From: a phage
Direction: 5' to 3' (one strand)
Sequence record: NC_135729.1
DNA: 64,000 nt
Shown here in pieces: positions 48,745-58,246 of the stretch. The translations under genes were made by a program, and so were the position numbers. Numbering within the stretch: the stretch's first letter is position 1; the number at the start of each line of letters is the position of its first letter. The notes under the pieces are model-generated. The model was not told the origin of the DNA and made no database searches. It saw only the letters and a program-made list of their open reading frames with translations.

Positions 48745-48821
48745 TGGTCTCCACGGAGTGATTCGAACACTCGACCTCCTGATCCCAAATCAGGCGCTCT
48801 ACCAAGCTGAGCTACGCGGAG
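48745..48821 (-). tRNA. tRNA-Pro (anticodon UGG)
   Basis: Manual fold: acceptor CTCCGCG/CGTGGAG, U8, D-loop AGCTTGGTA, anticodon stem CCTGA/TCAGG with loop TTTGGGA, T-arm GAGTG-TTCGAAT-CACTC, CCA encoded. Confidence 0.8.
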
Positions 48822-48832
48822 TATCTACTATT

Positions 48833-48907
48833 TGGTGGCCCTGGGTGGAATTGAACCACCGTCTGGCGATTATGAGTCGCTTGCTTGAACCTTCCAGCTA
48901 CAGGGCC
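48833..48907 (-). tRNA. tRNA-Met (anticodon CAU; elongator or lysidine-Ile2 not distinguishable)
   Basis: Manual fold: acceptor GGCCCTG/CAGGGCC, anticodon loop CTCATAA, T-arm GGTGG-TTCAATT-CCACC, CCA encoded. Confidence 0.7.
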
Positions 48908-48908
48908 A

Positions 48909-48984
48909 TGGTGCTGATGGCAGGACTTGAACCCGCAACCTATTGATTACAAATCAATTGCACTACCAATTGTGCTACATCAGC
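48909..48984 (-). tRNA. tRNA-Thr (anticodon UGU)
   Basis: Manual fold: acceptor GCTGATG/CATCAGC, D-arm GCAC-AATTGGTA-GTGC, anticodon stem ATTGA/TCAAT with loop TTTGTAA, T-arm GCGGG-TTCAAGT-CCTGC, CCA encoded; 1 nt from tRNA-Met. Confidence 0.8.
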
Positions 48985-48989
48985 AAAAA

Positions 48990-49088
48990 GGTGCTAGGCG
49001 GTGGAATCGAACCACCTATGTATTCAACGACTACCTCGTCTATTTTCAGGATTAAAAATCCTCGCCCTTGCCAAAGGGCTTACCTAGC
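48990..49088 (-). ncRNA. atypical 99-nt tRNA-like element (anticodon uncertain)
   Basis: Good acceptor stem (GCTAGGT/GCCTAGC), D-arm (GCCC-TTTGGCAA-GGGC) and canonical T-arm (GGTGG-TTCGATT-CCACC), but a 4-bp anticodon-type hairpin (AGGA-TTTTTAA-TCCT) and about 31 nt before the T-arm; 3' end ACC. Confidence 0.4.
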
Positions 49089-49186
49089 TCAATATGTTGA
49101 CCATGTTGCTAGTCGGCGATGACGACTGTAACATTTGATAATCCGGTTCTGCTTCCGGCTTTCGCTTAATTGCAAGGTCAACAATG

Positions 49187-49277
49187 TGGCGGAGAGTAAT
49201 GGAATCGAACCATCATCGAGTCATCCTCAACGGGACGGTTTTCAAGACCGCTTGAGCACCATTGCTCCCTACCCTCC
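49187..49277 (-). tRNA. tRNA-Ser (anticodon UGA), type II
   Basis: Manual fold: acceptor GGAGGGT/ACTCTCC, anticodon stem GCGGT/ACCGT with loop CTTGAAA, long variable arm, T-loop TTCGATT, CCA encoded. Confidence 0.75.
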
Positions 49278-49391
49278 TTTATAAATTATACTGATAATGA
49301 CACTGATTTTCGAGCAGTTAGTGACTAGTATAAACGACGATAAATATCAATGCCATTATCTGTATTATTTATGCATCTAAAAAATATAAAT

Positions 49392-49478
49392 TTGGTGGGG
49401 AGTGGTGGAGTCGAACCACCCGAGTCGCAATGACAATAGATTTACAGTCTACACCGCTACCTCTACGGGATAACTCCC
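49392..49478 (-). tRNA. tRNA-Tyr (anticodon GUA), type II
   Basis: Manual fold: acceptor GGGGAGT/ACTCCCC, anticodon stem with loop CTGTAAA, long variable arm, T-arm GGTGG-TTCGACT-CCACC, CCA encoded. Confidence 0.75.
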
Positions 49479-49482
49479 CAAT

Positions 49483-49557
49483 TTGGCACCCCGTACTGGA
49501 CTCGAACCAGTGTCAACGGCTTAGAAGGCCGCTGCTTTATCCACTAAGCTAACAGGG
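49483..49557 (-). tRNA. tRNA-Arg (anticodon UCU)
   Basis: Manual fold: acceptor GCCCTGT/ACGGGGT (two G-U pairs), D-arm GCTT-AGTGGATA-AAGC, anticodon stem GCGGC/GCCGT with loop CTTCTAA, T-loop TTCGAGT, CCA encoded. Confidence 0.75.
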
Positions 49558-49654
49558 CACTGGGTGGCTTTCTTTTACACCTTAGCCGCCAGAAAAGGTG
49601 GGAGACCATGTTTACAATATTACACTGTTAAGCAAAGTTTGTCAAGAAAATATT

Positions 49655-51928: not shown

Positions 51929-52009
51929 TGTCCGTATCACGGACAGTTAGTGTCCGTATTACGGGCAGATGTGTCCGCGTGACGGACAGTAGTGTCCGTA
52001 TCACGGGCA
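51929..52009. repeat. array of four 17-bp palindromes, TGTCCGTAT(C/T)ACGGACA-type, at 21-22-bp spacing (operator- or iteron-like)
   Basis: Copies at 51929, 51951, 51972 and 51993: TGTCCGTATCACGGACA, TGTCCGTATTACGGGCA, TGTCCGCGTGACGGACA, TGTCCGTATCACGGGCA. Confidence 0.6.
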
Positions 52010-52084
52010 GTTACTGACCTCTGTTCCAGAGCGAACATAAAACATACGAATCCTTATAGTACAGATATTTAAGTTTTTACTGGT

Positions 52085-52435
52085 CTAACCAGTTGTTGAC
52101 ATTCGAATAACCTCTTCTGGTGGCAAAACTTTGGAAAATGTACATCTTTTACCTCTCCCTTGTGTGGATATTTCAACCACTCCTGCACATTCTAAAGTTT
52201 TAACGCACGCTGCTGCTTTTGTTTTCTTTATCCCAACATCTGCTGCAATTTTCCTTGTGCTTGGTGTGAAGCGTGAATTTCCTCCAAGCTTATACCAGTT
52301 GTGCAGGTAGCAGTATACGATCTTGTCATATAAGTCAAGAACAACAGCCTCCCCAGTTGTGTCATTCAAAACTTTTGACATAGACAGTATTTCAAGGGGG
52401 ACTTTAAGATATAGCAGCTTATCCCCATCTTTCAT
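52085..52435 (-). CDS. helix-turn-helix DNA-binding regulator (116 aa)
   Basis: Probable HTH segment STRKIAADVGIKKTKAAACVKTLECAGVV; gene ends about 75 bp from the palindrome array. Confidence 0.45.
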   Translation of the reverse strand: MKDGDKLLYLKVPLEILSMSKVLNDTTGEAVVLDLYDKIVYCYLHNWYKLGGNSRFTPSTRKIAADVGIKKTKAAACVKTLECAGVVEISTQGRGKRCTFSKVLPPEEVIRMSTTG

Positions 52436-52482
52436 ATCTCCTGATTCTCCTTGTGTGGCAATTTTCTTTAAAATAGCAGGGA

Positions 52483-53037
52483 TTACTCCCCGCTGTCAAT
52501 AGCAAGACTCATTGCAATACGGTATGCCTCTTCTAATGGTAAGAGTCTCCCCCACACATCCCAACCGACATCAAACTGCCTGCCAAACAACTGCTGTGTG
52601 GTTCCGTGAGCATGACCGAACAGTTGGACTGATCCGTGAGGCTTTCTGTTCCACTTTGCAAACTGGTAATGGCTCATACAGATCAAATTCTTGTTGTGGC
52701 GAAGCTCGTAATAATCTACAACCTCATGACCGAACTCTTTCATAATTCTGACAGTCGTCCTTGTGTCATGGTTACCACGAACAAGAATAATATGTCCGTT
52801 CAACATATTTAGAACATCTGGGAGCAATTTGTTGATATTCTTATCATTAGTGCACGCAATATCTCCCAAGTGAAACACAGTGTCTGCAGGTGACACAACA
52901 GAGTTCCACTCGGCGATGATTCCCGCATTCATACTGTCAAGATTGTGATCATACTGAGATCTGTGTTTTTGACATGAATCAAACTCCATGACCCGCTGGT
53001 GGAGAAAGTGTGTGTCGCTTGTTACAAAGTATTTCAT
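52483..53037 (-). CDS. calcineurin-like metallophosphoesterase (candidate polynucleotide 2',3'/3'-phosphatase)
   Basis: Start moved to the ATG at 53037 (MKYFVTSDTHF...; GAGGA upstream); motifs SDTHF, GDIACTND, GNHD, GHAHG match the metallophosphoesterase signature. Confidence 0.6.
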   Translation of the reverse strand: MKYFVTSDTHFLHQRVMEFDSCQKHRSQYDHNLDSMNAGIIAEWNSVVSPADTVFHLGDIACTNDKNINKLLPDVLNMLNGHIILVRGNHDTRTTVRIMKEFGHEVVDYYELRHNKNLICMSHYQFAKWNRKPHGSVQLFGHAHGTTQQLFGRQFDVGWDVWGRLLPLEEAYRIAMSLAIDSGE

Positions 53038-53044
53038 ACATTCC

Positions 53045-53455
53045 TCATTTAAGTTTAATGCAGTTTTTAAGCTGGCGTTCCATACGATCCACAACCTTGT
53101 CTGGAACATCATGAATGCTTTTATTACCGTGGCGGTTTTCAACCACGATCACGGTATAACTATACCCGTGACTGATTGCCATGTCAACATATTCCTGCAC
53201 ATGTTTTTCTTTTGTAAACGTATTACTTACCACGATACGGTCGTATCCCGTACGCATCATATCTTCTACGTTATCTTTGCACCATTTTGCTGCGAGTGTT
53301 ACTTTACTTGCATCCCAGTTGTAATTGCCGTCATCGTCATACCAGAACATGTCGTTCTCAAAATGTGGATACAGACCTTCTAAAGATAGCGCATTTGCCA
53401 GTGTTGATTTGCCAGACCCTGGCAGACCACGCACGATATATAGCATTTTAGACAT
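53045..53455 (-). CDS. P-loop polynucleotide-kinase-like protein (T4 Pnk kinase-domain-like)
   Basis: Start moved to the ATG at 53455 (GGAGG 7 nt upstream); Walker A GLPGSGKST and downstream VVSNT resemble the T4 Pnk kinase domain. Confidence 0.55.
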   Translation of the reverse strand: MSKMLYIVRGLPGSGKSTLANALSLEGLYPHFENDMFWYDDDGNYNWDASKVTLAAKWCKDNVEDMMRTGYDRIVVSNTFTKEKHVQEYVDMAISHGYSYTVIVVENRHGNKSIHDVPDKVVDRMERQLKNCIKLK

Positions 53456-53483
53456 AGCAACCCTCCGTTTTAATTTTAATGAT

Positions 53484-53512
53484 AGTATACCTAACTGTTT
53501 TGTTAATTTCAA
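53484..53512 (-). promoter_or_regulatory. sigma70-type promoter for the leftward kinase / phosphatase / regulator operon
   Basis: Minus-strand -35 TTGAAA (plus 53507..53512), 17-bp spacer, -10 TATACT (plus 53484..53489), then GGAGG and the ATG at 53455. Confidence 0.45.
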
Positions 53513-53515
53513 GTG

Positions 53516-53545
53516 TTGACACTAGGTTATTTGTGTGGCATGATA
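53516..53545 (+). promoter_or_regulatory. sigma70-type promoter for the rightward RNA ligase / Sir2 operon (divergent from the previous one)
   Basis: Consensus -35 TTGACA at 53516..53521 with a weaker -10 (CATGAT/ATGATA) 17-18 bp downstream; -35 elements of the two promoters lie back to back. Confidence 0.4.
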
Positions 53546-53573
53546 GACTGACAAAATGACAAATGAGGAACGT

Positions 53574-54491
53574 ATGATGAAGTATTTTAATGCAGATGAC
53601 CTAGTAGACAAAGGTCTTGTAACCAGTCGGTATTATCCAGATCTTGGATTAAAGATCTATAAATATGCCAGAAAAGTATTCTACAACAATCTGTGGCATT
53701 TGTCTCCGCGTTTACTGGAGTGCCGAGGTATTGTTGTTGGCAATGAGGGGAATGTTGTGGCATGGCCTTTCACAAAAGTATTCAACTTAGGAGAAAACTC
53801 CACCAACCTACCGGACAGTAAACTTGTTACTGCGGTAGAGAAAAAGAACGGATTCCTCGGTGTGGTATCATCTCATAAAGGTGAACTATTGTTCTCAACA
53901 ACCGGGTCTCTTGATTCTCCATATTGTAACCTTGCAAAGGAAACCATCCAAGAGCAATGTGGTAATTTAGATCTTATCAAGAAGGTTATGGGCAATGAAA
54001 ACATGACATTCATGTTTGAAATTTGTCACCCTTCAGATCCGCATATTGTTCAGGAAGATCATGGCGCATATTTGATAGGTTGCAGATATAATGATTCTGG
54101 AATAATGCTACCAGAAGCAGCTTTAGATGGGATTGCCAAATACCTTGGTGCAAAACGTCCTCACACTGTGCGTGAAATTCCGTTCAGCTATGCAAAAGAA
54201 TTAGCTGCAGAAACAAGAGGTGAAGGGTATATGATTCGTAAGCCTTACTACCCTTATGATCTGCAGCTGAAGATCAAGTCTCCATACTATCTGGCACGGA
54301 AGGCCGTAATGAGGGGTAAAGCTTGGAAGATTTGGGATGATGATATCTTTAAACGTGTTGACGAAGAGTTTTACGGCATGGTAAACTTCATTCGTAGCAA
54401 TTACACAGAGGATGTGTGGAACTGCCTCCTGGAGCAGGAACGCCGTGAGATACTTGATTACTATTTCCACAACGAGAACTATATGCAATGA
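53574..54491 (+). CDS. RNA ligase, Rnl2-like nucleotidyltransferase
   Basis: Motif I-like EKKNGF (T4 Rnl2 EKIHGTN), motif IV EGYMIRKP (T4 Rnl2 EGYVLKP), motif V LKIK; start placed at the ATG preceded by GAGGAA (track ORF starts at 53556). Confidence 0.6.
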   Translation: MMKYFNADDLVDKGLVTSRYYPDLGLKIYKYARKVFYNNLWHLSPRLLECRGIVVGNEGNVVAWPFTKVFNLGENSTNLPDSKLVTAVEKKNGFLGVVSSHKGELLFSTTGSLDSPYCNLAKETIQEQCGNLDLIKKVMGNENMTFMFEICHPSDPHIVQEDHGAYLIGCRYNDSGIMLPEAALDGIAKYLGAKRPHTVREIPFSYAKELAAETRGEGYMIRKPYYPYDLQLKIKSPYYLARKAVMRGKAWKIWDDDIFKRVDEEFYGMVNFIRSNYTEDVWNCLLEQERREILDYYFHNENYMQ

Positions 54492-54838
54492 AGAAGTTGA
54501 TTGTGTGGCTAGATGACTTAAGAGATCCGTCAAATTACGGGCTCCCAGACGCTGTTTGGCTGAAGAATTCCTCCGAGTTTATGGATTTTATTAACGATAA
54601 GGGAAAGCTCTACAGACGCGTTTCTGAGTGGCATATGGACAACGACCTAGGAGAAGTATTCGAAGGATACGATTGCCTATCCATGTTGGAGGAAAAATTT
54701 GTATTCGGTAAGCCTCCCGTGGTTGACAACGTGAAGATTTTCGTACATACTTCTAATCCATCAGCGGCTCGTAAATTCATGCTTGCAGCTGACTCGTTTA
54801 AAAAGTTTGGAATAGAGATTAAACAAAACATCTACTGA
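54488..54838 (+). CDS. hypothetical protein (116 aa), coupled to the ligase gene
   Basis: ATGA start/stop overlap with the upstream gene; conserved-looking acidic motifs (WLDDLRDP, SEWHMDNDLG) but no recognisable family. Confidence 0.45.
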   Translation: MKKLIVWLDDLRDPSNYGLPDAVWLKNSSEFMDFINDKGKLYRRVSEWHMDNDLGEVFEGYDCLSMLEEKFVFGKPPVVDNVKIFVHTSNPSAARKFMLAADSFKKFGIEIKQNIY

Positions 54839-54846
54839 GGGCACTT

Positions 54847-55608
54847 ATGCGACGACTGATTATTATCTCCGGTGCTGGTTTGAGCGCTGAATCTGGTATT
54901 CCCACTTTCCGATCTGGTAGTACTGCAATGTGGGAGAATTTCAGCATAGATGAGGTGTGCAACATCCACACCTTCGCCAAGAACTACTATAAGGTGCATG
55001 ACTTTTACAATGCACGTCGTGTAGCTCTGGGCAGTGTTGATCCTAACCTTGCACATCTCCGGATCGCTGAGTGGTATTCCCGCTGGTCTGGTCGTGTGAT
55101 CAACCTGACCACCAATGTAGATGATTTGCTGGAGCGTGCTGGTGTAAAACATGAAGATATTTTACATGTCCACGGGTATTTGCCTGAAATCACCTATGAA
55201 GATACTGAAGGTAATGATGTAATTAAAAATATAGGGTACACGGAGGTAGATACAGGCAAGTATACCTGGGTTAAGCCCAATGTAGTGTTCTTCGGTGAGG
55301 TTGCTCCTAAGTATACAGACATGTATGACCTGTTGACATCTCTTACCAGCAATGATATGGTGATCCTGGTAGGTTGTTCTAACACAGTTATTAATTTTAA
55401 CTGGGAATTGTTTCCTGCTACTTGTAAAGGCACAAAACTGCTGATTGTAAACAAGTATGATTCGCAGAGTGCAGATGGAAGTGGCATTTCACGTAGCGAC
55501 CTTTATCAATATGAGGATCGCGGGATCCCTGTATGGTTTAACGGTGCTGTTGACGCTTTCTCTGATAAAGCATTTATTGAAACTGTAGAAAACTTTATGG
55601 AACTGTAA
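54847..55608 (+). CDS. Sir2-family (sirtuin-like) NAD-dependent protein lacking the zinc-ribbon module
   Basis: Sirtuin signature SGAGLSAESGIPTFR, NAD-pocket TTNVDDLLERAG, catalytic HG in LHVHG, VVFFGE and LVGCSNTV motifs; no CxxC...CxxC after the HG. Confidence 0.8.
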   Translation: MRRLIIISGAGLSAESGIPTFRSGSTAMWENFSIDEVCNIHTFAKNYYKVHDFYNARRVALGSVDPNLAHLRIAEWYSRWSGRVINLTTNVDDLLERAGVKHEDILHVHGYLPEITYEDTEGNDVIKNIGYTEVDTGKYTWVKPNVVFFGEVAPKYTDMYDLLTSLTSNDMVILVGCSNTVINFNWELFPATCKGTKLLIVNKYDSQSADGSGISRSDLYQYEDRGIPVWFNGAVDAFSDKAFIETVENFMEL

Positions 55609-55622
55609 GAGGTGACCTTTTA

Positions 55623-56336
55623 ATGCTAAATACTAAACTGATCGACAACCTGGAAAAACTGTCTCAGCCAGAAAACTACCTTTGGTCTGCCAGTTGGGTG
55701 GAAAATTGGAACCGTGTAGCAGCTAAAGTGAAAAAATCATACACACCATTCGAACTCCAGCTCAGTTTTATTGAAGAAGAGTTTAATGAGGTTCTTGAAG
55801 AGTTGGAGAAAGGTGATGGTGGAGATCACCTGCTAAAAGAGGCCTGTGATCTGCACGTTGTTACAAGTTATGCCGCTTATCTTGTCAACGATAACTACGA
55901 AAAGTGGACAAGTCTGTTTGATAATTCGCGAGATATTAAGTTTAAGATTGGGGAGTTCTATGATACACTGATCGCTGCTAAAAACACACCAAAGCAAAAA
56001 GCGTCTGCTTACCGACTAGCGGAGTTATCAACAGCTTTGCTGTTCCAGCTTAGCGGGGATGTGTGTGGGATGATGCGGAAGGTTCTCAAATCTAATGACA
56101 GTAAGTTTGCGCGGATCAACCATCTACGGCATTCACACGGTGCTAGTGCAGATATGCCTGCTGAACAACTCATAGAGTTGGAGATTAAAGATCTTGAGCG
56201 ACGCTTTGATGGTCGCTACGAAGGTTTTGTTGCTAAGGAAGAGTTCTACAACGGTAATAAAGTTATCATATTCCTTGACAGTAAAGGTAAGATCATGAAG
56301 CCTTCGAGCTTCAAGGATGTAACAGAGTATATTTGA
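55623..56336 (+). CDS. MazG-like nucleoside triphosphate pyrophosphohydrolase domain protein (237 aa)
   Basis: N-terminal EEEFNEVLEELEKGDGGDHLLKEACDLHVV resembles the MazG/HisE EExxE...D core; C-terminal half unassigned. Confidence 0.5.
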   Translation: MLNTKLIDNLEKLSQPENYLWSASWVENWNRVAAKVKKSYTPFELQLSFIEEEFNEVLEELEKGDGGDHLLKEACDLHVVTSYAAYLVNDNYEKWTSLFDNSRDIKFKIGEFYDTLIAAKNTPKQKASAYRLAELSTALLFQLSGDVCGMMRKVLKSNDSKFARINHLRHSHGASADMPAEQLIELEIKDLERRFDGRYEGFVAKEEFYNGNKVIIFLDSKGKIMKPSSFKDVTEYI

Positions 56337-56342
56337 CAACAT

Positions 56343-56368
56343 AGCCGGGTAATCCCGGCTTTACTTAT
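56343..56368 (+). terminator. possible intrinsic terminator after the MazG-like gene
   Basis: Hairpin AGCCGGG-taat-CCCGGCT followed by a T-rich stretch. Confidence 0.4.
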
Positions 56369-56398
56369 TATGGAAAGTATGCAGCGAGGTAGTTAGTT

Positions 56399-56707
56399 AT
56401 GTACAAGCATTCCAGAGATCTTGAAAAAGATGCTGTGTTTGGCGACCAGATGAAGGAGCTGATCAAACTTATAGGTAGAATGGAAGATAAGTTTGACACT
56501 AAAATCTACATCGATAGCAAGATCTTCAACCACAAAATATGGACAAATGTGTGTGTTGGGCTACATGGTGATAAAGATATTGTAAATTTGGTTGTAATAA
56601 AGTTCATAGTGTGGCAGAATAAGACTATACGTTATTCCGATCCACACTTACTTGTTTATCCTATAAAAGACCTACTACAGAAGGAGGACTGCAATGCCGT
56701 TATTTAA
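56399..56707 (+). CDS. hypothetical protein (102 aa)
   Basis: ORF with no motif. Confidence 0.35.
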   Translation: MYKHSRDLEKDAVFGDQMKELIKLIGRMEDKFDTKIYIDSKIFNHKIWTNVCVGLHGDKDIVNLVVIKFIVWQNKTIRYSDPHLLVYPIKDLLQKEDCNAVI

Positions 56708-56963
56708 TCTTGCTAAACCTGTAGAAGCCCACCAGTTTGACGGAAGCTCTTCATCAGTATCTGATCTGCAACGGTGGATTGATACAGGTGTGTTTACATC
56801 GTCACCTGTTCGGACCAGAGATCTTCGTCGCATGTGTGAGCTTGTCGAGCCTTTTGGTAACCTTGTCTTGTACCAGGGAGATTGGCTAGTTGACTTTATG
56901 GGAGACTGGTTGGTAATGAGTAAAGAAGAGATGTTTAAAATTTTTAAGGAAGAGGCCGAGTAA
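56694..56963 (+). CDS. hypothetical protein (89 aa)
   Basis: ORF overlapping both neighbours at its ends; no motif. Confidence 0.35.
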   Translation: MPLFNLAKPVEAHQFDGSSSSVSDLQRWIDTGVFTSSPVRTRDLRRMCELVEPFGNLVLYQGDWLVDFMGDWLVMSKEEMFKIFKEEAE

Positions 56964-58246
56964 TGCATCAAATCAAAACAACACTGTACGCACTGAACAA
57001 AGATGGCAGCTACCAACAGTGGAAAGTATTCACTGATGGCGAAAAGGTTATCGTAGAGTTTGGCAAGCTTGACGGTAAATTGCAGTACAAAGAGACGGTA
57101 TGCACACCTAAGAACGTAGGTCGTGCCAATGAGACTACAGCTGAGCAACAGGCCGAGCTTGAGGCTATCAGCAAGTGGGAAAAACAAGTCCGTCTGGGGT
57201 ATGTTGAAAACATGGAAGATTGCGAGCAGGGTGTTGATCTTTTACCCATGCTGGTGCATGACTACCTGAAGCGTGGCAAGGCACTTAAACTACCTTGCTG
57301 GATCTTGCGTAAGTTAGATGGCCTTCGTCTGCTTGTTGTTTTCCAAAATGGTGAGCCTAAATTTATTTCCCGTGGTAATAAGTCCTACCCTATTCAAGGA
57401 AAGCTTTTAGAGCAACTTCGTTCTTTCCATTCTACCACTGGGATTAAACAACTTGATGGGGAACTATACATTCATGGTCTTCCTTTGCAGAAAATAGTGT
57501 CTCTTGCTAAACGGTGGCGCACACAGGAAGAGATTCAGGCCGAGATCGATAAAGACTATGAGGCAGATAAAAAACGCCGTCATGCCGCAATTAAGTCCGG
57601 CTTATCAACATATAAAAACTTCAACAAGGTAGATATTCCTGTCGATGTTGAGCCTGTTCGTGATGATTTGCGTTACGGTGGGTACTGTAGCTACGATCTG
57701 GAGTATCACATTTTTGATATTCCTAGCGACAAGGTGTGGTGGGATCCCGAAACAGAGTCTGGACGCTGCAAGGATCTTATGGATGCAGAGGATACCGTTA
57801 CCACTCTGATGCTTGACCATATCAAGGTTGTTGACGCAGAGCTTGCGTACACAGTTGATCATTGCGAAGAATCTGTTGGTATATTCATGTCCGAAGGATA
57901 TGAAGGTACCATTATGCGTAACTTCTGTGGTAAATATGAGTACGGTCAGAGAACATCTGAAGCATTGAAATGGAAAAAGTTCAACGACGCAGAGGTGAAA
58001 GTTATTGACGTTGAGAAAGATAAGAATGATGAAGGTGTTCTTATCTGTGTTGACAAGGAAGGTATTGTTGTTAAAATGAAGATGAAAGGTACGCACGAGG
58101 AGCGTAGCTATGACAGAATGCAGGAAATGATCGGCAAGTTTGTCACCTTCAAATATCAAGCAAGGACAGAAGACAACAACTACCAATTCCCTGTCGGTAT
58201 CTGCGTCCGAAATGTTAACCCAGACACTTGGGAGGTGCTGGAATAA
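56963..58246 (+). CDS. ATP-dependent DNA ligase
   Basis: Motif I KLDG (active-site Lys), motif IV EGTIMR, motif V LKWKKF. Confidence 0.8.
   Translation: MHQIKTTLYALNKDGSYQQWKVFTDGEKVIVEFGKLDGKLQYKETVCTPKNVGRANETTAEQQAELEAISKWEKQVRLGYVENMEDCEQGVDLLPMLVHDYLKRGKALKLPCWILRKLDGLRLLVVFQNGEPKFISRGNKSYPIQGKLLEQLRSFHSTTGIKQLDGELYIHGLPLQKIVSLAKRWRTQEEIQAEIDKDYEADKKRRHAAIKSGLSTYKNFNKVDIPVDVEPVRDDLRYGGYCSYDLEYHIFDIPSDKVWWDPETESGRCKDLMDAEDTVTTLMLDHIKVVDAELAYTVDHCEESVGIFMSEGYEGTIMRNFCGKYEYGQRTSEALKWKKFNDAEVKVIDVEKDKNDEGVLICVDKEGIVVKMKMKGTHEERSYDRMQEMIGKFVTFKYQARTEDNNYQFPVGICVRNVNPDTWEVLE

Follow-up and report, generated by a model that had tools for sequence, protein, structure and literature searches.

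A probable RNA break-repair gene cluster in Vequintavirus coliphages

The window analysed here is a 64,000-nucleotide stretch of phage DNA (sequence record NC_135729.1), and we describe a group of genes at 52483-56336 that probably encodes a multi-protein system for healing and sealing breaks in RNA, most likely tRNA, from two predicted divergent operons. Using region 52000-55000 as the query for a nucleotide comparison with public phage records, we found 99.7% identity to Escherichia phage PDX, a Vequintavirus (rV5-like coliphage), and 93-98% identity to more than 100 further Vequintavirus coliphages. Query coverage was at least 80% in 117 of the 119 matching records, so the gene arrangement is fixed across the genus. 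Eighteen unannotated GenBank records (MG0656xx) that are named "Campylobacter phage" with Campylobacter jejuni as host are 94-99.5% identical to the locus, and this host and name look doubtful. Hidden Markov models (HMMs) of the cluster's families each gave one match in the 64-kb window, all at the 52483-56336 locus, where the following genes lie (lengths in amino acids, aa):

52483..53037, minus strand: calcineurin-type metallophosphoesterase of the aq_1665-like family, 184 aa, predicted healer of 2',3'-cyclic-phosphate/3'-phosphate RNA ends.
53045..53455, minus strand: stand-alone P-loop kinase of the polynucleotide-kinase clade, 136 aa, predicted RNA 5'-OH kinase.
53556..54491, plus strand: Rnl1-type ATP-dependent RNA ligase, 311 aa from ATG 53556, predicted sealing enzyme.
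54488..54838, plus strand: cREC (cyclic-phosphate-processing receiver-like) protein, 116 aa (PF20274 cREC_REC at 1.5e-14, 54.9 bits against a cut-off of 27).
54847..55608, plus strand: Sir2-family sirtuin, 253 aa (Pfam SIR2 at 7e-28).
55623..56336, plus strand: MazG-like all-alpha nucleotide pyrophosphohydrolase, 237 aa (phrog_671 at 4.8e-21).

A first-pass annotation of this DNA had proposed three separate, outward-facing genes for a kinase, a phosphoesterase and an RNA ligase. We find these three open reading frames (ORFs) where it had placed them, on two strands (phosphoesterase 53037 to 52483 and kinase 53455 to 53045 on the minus strand, ligase 53556 to 54491 on the plus strand) and split by a 100-bp intergenic region, and all of the motifs it had quoted are present in the translations at the expected places. 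Since each of the three proteins is above a Pfam gathering threshold and has thousands of homologs, they are real genes rather than chance ORFs. The unit that had been drawn was correct for these core genes; it had stopped at the ligase and left out the cREC, sirtuin and MazG-like genes that follow.

The kinase matches Pfam AAA_33 at 1.4e-10. Single-sequence searches of the PDB with this protein yielded nothing meaningful and a profile search was required. The top structural and profile matches are T4 Pnk, the CthPnkp kinase, Pnkp1 and PSTK, so that fold and profile are nearer to polynucleotide or tRNA kinases than to small-molecule or nucleotide kinases, in agreement with the earlier description of a T4 Pnk-like P-loop kinase. 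The P-loop GLPGSGKST (aa 10-18; G10-LPGSGK16-S-T18) is invariant among homologs, as is D35, which aligns with D35 of T4 Pnk, the general-base Asp after strand 2. Fused forms were sought in the best 120 kinase homologs, all of which are stand-alone.

The phosphoesterase exceeds the Pfam cut-offs for Metallophos_2 and Metallophos, matches phrog_547 ("phosphoesterase") at 3e-51 and contains the DxH, GD and GNHD motifs, and it had thus been correctly placed among the calcineurin-type metallophosphoesterases. Its metal-ligand motifs are D8-x-H10, G58-D59, G88-N-H-D91, H123 and G141-H-A-H144, and the dinuclear-metal motifs are kept across 29 family members. The only relative in the PDB is aq_1665 (1xm7; 2e-10 with the single sequence, 5.5e-18 with a profile), and neither of these searches found a lambda-phosphatase or Pnkp phosphatase chain in the PDB at E <= 1. 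A Pnkp- or lambda-phosphatase-like identity is therefore rejected at the sequence level, and the earlier likening to the phosphatase of bacterial Pnkp holds for the calcineurin superfamily and fails for the family, which is the uncharacterised aq_1665 family with no lambda-phosphatase-type match. This family comprises more than 6,600 clusters, with top members that are all stand-alone and 208-235 aa long. As with the kinase, no fused form was found in the best 120 homologs.

The length of the ligase varies among public records (311, 305 or 304 aa). A GAGGA Shine-Dalgarno sequence precedes ATG 53574/53577, the start also chosen in several GenBank records. No clear ribosome-binding site precedes the upstream ATG 53556, which is about 11 nt past the predicted -10 element and would have almost no leader. 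Translation thus probably starts at ATG 53574 or 53577, yielding a protein of 305 or 304 aa. The ligase matches Pfam RNA_lig_T4_1 (PF09511) at 9e-15 (55.5 bits against a cut-off of 28.3) and phrog_562, the T4 gp63 family, at 4e-66. Single-sequence PDB searches again found nothing meaningful, and a profile search with 44 homologs found only T4 Rnl1 (2c5u, 9do4; 1.5e-12). In a structure model with a pLDDT of 91.8, Foldseek ranks Rnl3, the fungal Trl1 ligase domain and T4 Rnl1 about equally (E ~1e-12, TMq ~0.6). An Rnl2 identity was considered and rejected, because Pfam gave no PF09414 match at E <= 0.01 and the fold match to T4 Rnl2 is far poorer (E 5e-6 to 1e-4, TMq 0.38-0.40). By family profiles and modelled fold, the ligase is best classed as Rnl1-type and not, as had been proposed, Rnl2-like.

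The residues known to be essential in T4 Rnl1 include R54, K75 and F77, which belong to the Rnl1-specific N-terminal part. The phage ligase, with its motifs EKKNGF (95-100), EGYMIRKP (223-230) and LKIK (238-241), has R57, K74, F76 and K96/G99 (motif I) opposite T4 R54, K75, F77 and K99/G102, and E155 (III), E223-G224 (IV) and K239/K241 (V) opposite T4 E159, E227-G228 and K240/K242. All of these catalytic residues from R57 to K241, and also K96-x-N98-G99, are invariant in the 44 homologs. Additionally, the kinase aligns with positions 2-109 of the PHROG 8238 profile and the ligase with positions 441-686, and fused kinase-X-ligase proteins therefore exist; the phosphoesterase does not match this fused PHROG even at E <= 10.

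Linkage of the three genes in other phages was measured by a census of 80 IMG/VR loci that were picked solely for a kinase homolog of 42-51% identity. Their ORFs were searched with purpose-built HMMs, and neighbours were counted on the kinase strand within 6 kb; many loci are incomplete, so that the counts are lower bounds, and some are near-duplicates. We observed an aq_1665-type phosphoesterase beside the kinase homolog in 53 of the 80 loci and an RNA ligase of any kind in 44 (labels confirmed with Pfam), and 33 loci contain all three of kinase, phosphoesterase and RNA ligase. The ligase is Rnl1-type in 25 loci and of the PF09414 type with an N-terminal OB domain in 20. Since the kinase-phosphoesterase pair is found with either of two unrelated ligase types, it fits a generic end-healing module. 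A cREC gene is near the kinase homolog in 16 loci, 15 of which also have an RNA ligase, and DNA ligase (5/80), MazG-like (4/80) and Sir2 (3/80) genes are found at a few.

Individual genomes show the same association. Three other phage backgrounds, with ligase homologs of 45-48% identity, have a contiguous co-directional phosphoesterase-ligase-kinase block with cREC, Sir2, DNA ligase and MazG-like genes nearby. On freshwater phage contigs the kinase homolog overlaps the phosphoesterase gene and a PF09414-type ligase lies 1.8 kb downstream. A 78-kb soil contig (JGI sample 3300050046) encodes, in order, a CCA-adding-type nucleotidyltransferase (PolyA_pol), Rnl1, phosphoesterase and kinase, and this order links tRNA 3'-end repair to the module; genes for GTP cyclohydrolase I and a PRA-PH/MazG-like protein precede PolyA_pol on the same contig. 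In Erwinia phage Hena1 (852-3595 of the Hena1 stretch), NAPRTase-like and PRPP-synthetase-like genes lie immediately upstream of a phosphoesterase-ligase-kinase-Sir2 block, and this NAD+ salvage/reconstitution pair hints that NAD+ supply is tied functionally to the repair cluster. A 3.5-kb contig (JAHXDU010000436.1) has a ligase-kinase pair in an inverted duplication that is most likely an assembly artefact.

The arrangement of the locus can be described with the following additional features:

53456..53555: 100-bp intergenic region with back-to-back sigma-70-like promoter candidates from a consensus scan.
53512-53484, minus strand: candidate promoter with -35 TTGAAA (53512-53507), a 17-nt spacer and -10 TATACT (53489-53484), 10/12 hexamer positions.
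53516-53544, plus strand: candidate promoter with -35 TTGACA (53516-53521), a 17-nt spacer and an extended -10, TGnCATGAT, ending at 53544, 10/12 hexamer positions.
52475..52494, minus strand: terminator-like 8-bp hairpin, AGCGGGGA-GTAA-TCCCTGCT, followed by ATTTT and overlapping the phosphoesterase stop codon.
56343..56360, plus strand: terminator-like hairpin after the MazG-like gene, found by a scan; phage Murica has an annotated terminator at the corresponding place.

We read the locus as two divergent operons, kinase-phosphoesterase and Rnl1-cREC-sirtuin-MazG, because the cREC start overlaps the ligase stop codon (ATGA), the Sir2 and MazG genes follow, and terminator-like hairpins lie at both ends. 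The hairpin at 52475..52494 is annotated as a terminator in phage Murica; we found it by eye, and the automated terminator scan did not call it. The sign of the GC skew flips near 53.5 kb, the point of diverging transcription. The first-pass annotation had placed back-to-back promoters between the two gene sets. Two opposed sigma-70-like sites are indeed there, in which both minus-strand hexamers and the plus-strand -35 and TG are invariant in six Vequintaviruses, and the plus-strand -10 differs among them (CATGAT, CAGGAT, CAAGAT, CAGAAT). However, the intergenic region is 97% identical overall among Vequintaviruses, giving a conservation test little power, and promoter-like sites in 52000-56500 are not enriched over shuffles (17 versus 11.1 +/- 3.9 expected). 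The sites are therefore candidates, and divergent promoters a plausible prediction only.

Just downstream of the kinase-phosphoesterase operon, on the same strand at 52085-52435, is a gene for a helix-turn-helix protein (HTH_36/DUF6945) that is variously labelled "replication initiation protein", "transcriptional regulator" or "DNA-binding protein" in public records. Its own promoter-like site (52499-52470) overlaps the terminator hairpin upstream. Further downstream of the operon and co-directional with it is the tRNA cluster:

48745..49558, minus strand: seven tRNA genes (Pro, Met, Thr, one atypical, Ser, Tyr, Arg), from ARAGORN, Rfam and the Murica annotation.

The distance to this cluster, previously put at about 4 kb, is ~3.9 kb from the promoter region and 2.9 kb from the end of the phosphoesterase gene. 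The atypical gene (48990-49088, minus strand) is 99 nt long; ARAGORN calls a four-base anticodon (atcc) with no amino-acid identity, the Rfam tRNA score is 31 bits against a gathering threshold of 29, and Murica labels it "tRNA-OTHER Asp|Gly". Degeneration of a tRNA, an insertion into one, or a frameshift-suppressor-like tRNA could each account for this gene.

The three genes downstream of the ligase retain the residues characteristic of their families. The cREC protein has invariant D9, D10, R12, P14, D51, D53, H87 and N90 among 18 homologs; it retains a receiver-like acidic pocket, and its neighbours are RNA-repair genes. The NAD+-binding and catalytic-His motifs of the sirtuin (GAGxSxESG, TTNVDDL, H109-G110) are conserved. 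No CxxC pairs of a zinc-binding module are present in its sequence, which has C38, C177 and C193 as its only cysteines; the protein belongs to a distinct zinc-less clade. The MazG-like protein, annotated as a nucleotide pyrophosphohydrolase in phage Murica, has invariant E52, E53, E56 and D76 (EExxE...D motif).

From these gene families, their intact catalytic motifs, the structural similarities and the conserved linkage, we infer the following substrates and order of steps, taking T4 Pnkp/Rnl1 and bacterial Pnkp as models. Host defence ribonucleases would cleave tRNA anticodon loops, yielding 5'-OH and 2',3'-cyclic-phosphate ends. The 136-aa P-loop kinase would use ATP to phosphorylate the 5'-OH, the binuclear metallophosphoesterase would convert the cyclic phosphate or 3'-phosphate into a 3'-OH, and the Rnl1-type ligase would self-adenylate on K96, pass the AMP to the 5'-phosphate and seal the break. 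The cREC, zinc-less sirtuin and MazG-like proteins would be accessory, speculatively in a second, NAD+-dependent clearing of cyclic or 2'-phosphates or in processing of by-products. The role as a countermeasure against anticodon nucleases, which had also been suggested earlier, we infer from the action of T4 Pnkp and Rnl1 against PrrC. A heal-and-seal set of kinase, phosphoesterase and RNA ligase is the best-supported reading of the locus, by homology and by conserved linkage in unrelated phages, and the full proposal of a multi-protein repair system is probably right.

Several observations weigh against this proposal. In Vequintaviruses the kinase and phosphoesterase are in a transcription unit apart from the ligase. 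In T4 Pnk, R38 binds the acceptor 3'-phosphate and the lid residue R126 contacts ATP. The homolog alignment shows no Arg at the R38-equivalent position of the kinase, with M-F-W or F after D35; invariant R108 (in ENRHG) and R9 could stand in. Kinase homologs also occur alone, for example within structural-gene modules, so the linkage to repair genes is strong but not universal. A C-terminal DHH motif is nearly invariant in the phosphoesterase family and carried by most members, but the Vequintavirus copy is without it and ends ...DSGE, with DHGE in its closest relatives; aq_1665, the sole solved relative, has no known function. The ligase scores 38 bits against a cut-off of 242 for the NCBIfam equivalog TIGR02308, has T116 where T4 Rnl1 has K119, and has a C-terminal helical region (residues 243-311) of ~65 aa versus ~120 aa in T4. 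It is therefore a member of the Rnl1 family but not an ortholog of T4 RnlA. A literature search found no experimental work on Vequintavirus RNA repair.

A more elaborate version of the repair proposal, which we regard as possible but doubtful, is that two parallel 3'-end healing routes feed the one Rnl1-type ligase and that the kinase/phosphoesterase pair is a widespread two-protein "Pnkp". One route would be direct hydrolysis by the aq_1665-type metallophosphoesterase. In the other, which would be Trl1/Tpt1-like, cREC would open the 2',3'-cyclic phosphate to a 2'-phosphate, the sirtuin would transfer this phosphate to NAD+, and MazG together with cREC would clear the ADP-ribose cyclic-phosphate by-product. 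In thousands of environmental phages, the pair itself would work interchangeably with ligases of the Rnl1 type and the OB-plus-PF09414 type. If this were true, the sirtuin would be the first to act as an RNA 2'-phosphotransferase.

Other explanations dispense with RNA repair altogether. The module could belong to nucleotide, second-messenger and NAD+ metabolism directed against host defence, with a kinase acting on a nucleotide, an RNA ligase that is a mere neighbour, and phosphoesterase, cREC, sirtuin and MazG-like proteins that destroy cyclic-nucleotide or ADP-ribose-derived immune signals or alarmones. Iyer et al. assign Sir2, cREC and MazG to NAD+/ADPr and nucleotide-signal networks, degradation of cyclic nucleotides is predicted for calcineurin-like phosphodiesterases including T5 A1, many small-molecule kinases have the P-loop kinase fold, and the Hena1 cluster adjoins the NAPRTase- and PRPP-synthetase-like genes. 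However, RNA ligases of two families are found in 44 of the 80 census loci compared with 3 for Sir2 and 4 for MazG, and the kinase has its top matches among polynucleotide or tRNA kinases rather than nucleotide kinases. We consider this explanation unlikely. A role of the kinase and phosphoesterase in DNA, cleaning 5'-OH/3'-phosphate nicks for the ATP-dependent DNA ligase encoded at 56963-58246, is very improbable by the same census, in which DNA ligase is near the kinase in 5 loci compared with 44 for RNA ligases. This DNA ligase gene is 2.5 kb downstream and recurs near the cluster in relatives, and T4 Pnkp can act on DNA; the phosphoesterase also has a weak match to the ligase-associated PdeM family (2.4e-4), which at 20.6 bits is far under the 150-bit cut-off.

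The cluster could instead mature or modify the phage's own RNAs, either by processing the tRNA cluster or by circularising or joining transcripts. The seven tRNA genes on the same strand as the kinase-phosphoesterase operon, the aberrant 99-nt tRNA-like gene among them, and the CCA-adding-type enzyme linked to the module in one contig all point in this direction. We nevertheless judge it decidedly unlikely, as no endonuclease partner or intron was identified and T4 Pnkp and Rnl1, the sole studied precedent, are established to serve damage repair. Finally, PHROG 562 and many GenBank records carry the label "RNA ligase and tail fiber protein attachment catalyst", and the ligase homolog could be mainly a tail-fibre attachment catalyst like T4 gp63, flanked by an unrelated kinase and phosphoesterase. 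We judge this label to have been transferred from T4. The catalytic residues of the ligase are all invariant, its gene shows linkage to end-healing rather than tail genes, and the C-terminal domain of the protein is unlike that of T4 gp63, leaving this explanation barely credible. The main argument against each of these four alternatives to RNA repair is that linkage to RNA ligases dominates.

The proposed repair cluster differs in several ways from known systems. The T4 Pnkp and Rnl1 (gp63) pathway that counters PrrC has its kinase and a HAD-type (DxDxT) phosphatase in one fusion protein, whereas here a stand-alone kinase is accompanied by a binuclear metallophosphoesterase with a gene of its own. 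The ligase here is ~65 aa shorter than T4 Rnl1, with a reduced C-terminal domain and T116 for K119, and the T4 pathway has nothing that corresponds to the cREC, sirtuin and MazG genes. The bacterial Pnkp/Hen1 and Pnkp1-Rnl-Hen1 systems (Clostridium thermocellum, Capnocytophaga gingivalis) likewise combine a P-loop polynucleotide kinase, a calcineurin-superfamily phosphoesterase and an ATP-dependent RNA ligase. CthPnkp has the three activities in one polypeptide, in contrast to the three separate ORFs on two strands here; it has a lambda-phosphatase-type phosphatase and a ligase from a distinct (Rnl4) clade. A scan limited to the genes within ~3 kb either side found no methyltransferase domain or annotation that would indicate Hen1.

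Trl1, which with Tpt1 splices and repairs tRNA in fungi and plants, provides one of the top structural matches of the ligase (Trl1 ligase domain, E ~1e-12) and combines ligase, kinase and cyclic phosphodiesterase. It differs from the phage proteins in having these activities in one polypeptide, with a cyclic phosphodiesterase of the 2H type, and the sequence profile of the phage ligase does not reach it. Tpt1 removes the junction 2'-phosphate with NAD+. The sirtuin is its suggested analogue in the phage cluster (PMC9503650); we saw no Tpt1/KptA homolog. Aquifex aeolicus aq_1665, a structural-genomics entry (1xm7), shares the N-terminal SDTHF.H, LGD and GNHD motifs with the phosphoesterase, and the phage family adds the C-terminal DHH motif that is degenerate in this phage.

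As a prediction, the cluster is not new. In Viruses 2022 (PMC9503650, section 3.7.3), Iyer, Burroughs, Anantharaman and Aravind described a type 2 sirtuin-centred neighbourhood for NAD+-dependent RNA repair, for which Escherichia phage V5 and Proteus phage Mydo serve as prototypes. Their type 2 set consists of a sirtuin, a T4-like tRNA ligase, cREC, a nucleotide kinase, a MazG pyrophosphatase and a calcineurin-like phosphoesterase, and its proposed role is RNA-end clean-up for ligation (PMC9503650; cf. PMC7824862). All six members are present within 52483-56336, and Escherichia phage V5 is of the same genus. That account is built around the sirtuin and describes the phosphoesterase as "occasional", whereas in our kinase-centred census the phosphoesterase is the commonest neighbour (53/80) and the sirtuin is rare (3/80); both accounts are computational. 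Several GenBank records already carry the labels "polynucleotide kinase", "RNA ligase 1" and "phosphoesterase". With the neighbourhood published as a prediction and the genes annotated in GenBank, little is added here as a sequence finding; our small additions are the corrected family assignments, the two-operon layout and the kinase-centred census.

The rV5-type cluster would provide a genetically tractable second example of RNA repair in a coliphage, with an enzyme set different from that of T4. To our knowledge, T4 Pnkp/Rnl1 is the only phage RNA-repair countermeasure that has been studied experimentally. Effectors that cleave tRNA are common anti-phage weapons in E. coli and include PrrC, RloC, PARIS AriB and Retron-Eco7 PtuAB as well as Schlafens, OLD, ApeA and Cas13a. 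We know of no assayed member of the aq_1665-type phosphoesterase, cREC or zinc-less sirtuin families. Study of the cluster could thus yield the first biochemical functions for families with thousands of environmental members and indicate which nucleases' damage is repairable, and the cluster bears on a fast-growing set of tRNA-targeting defences.

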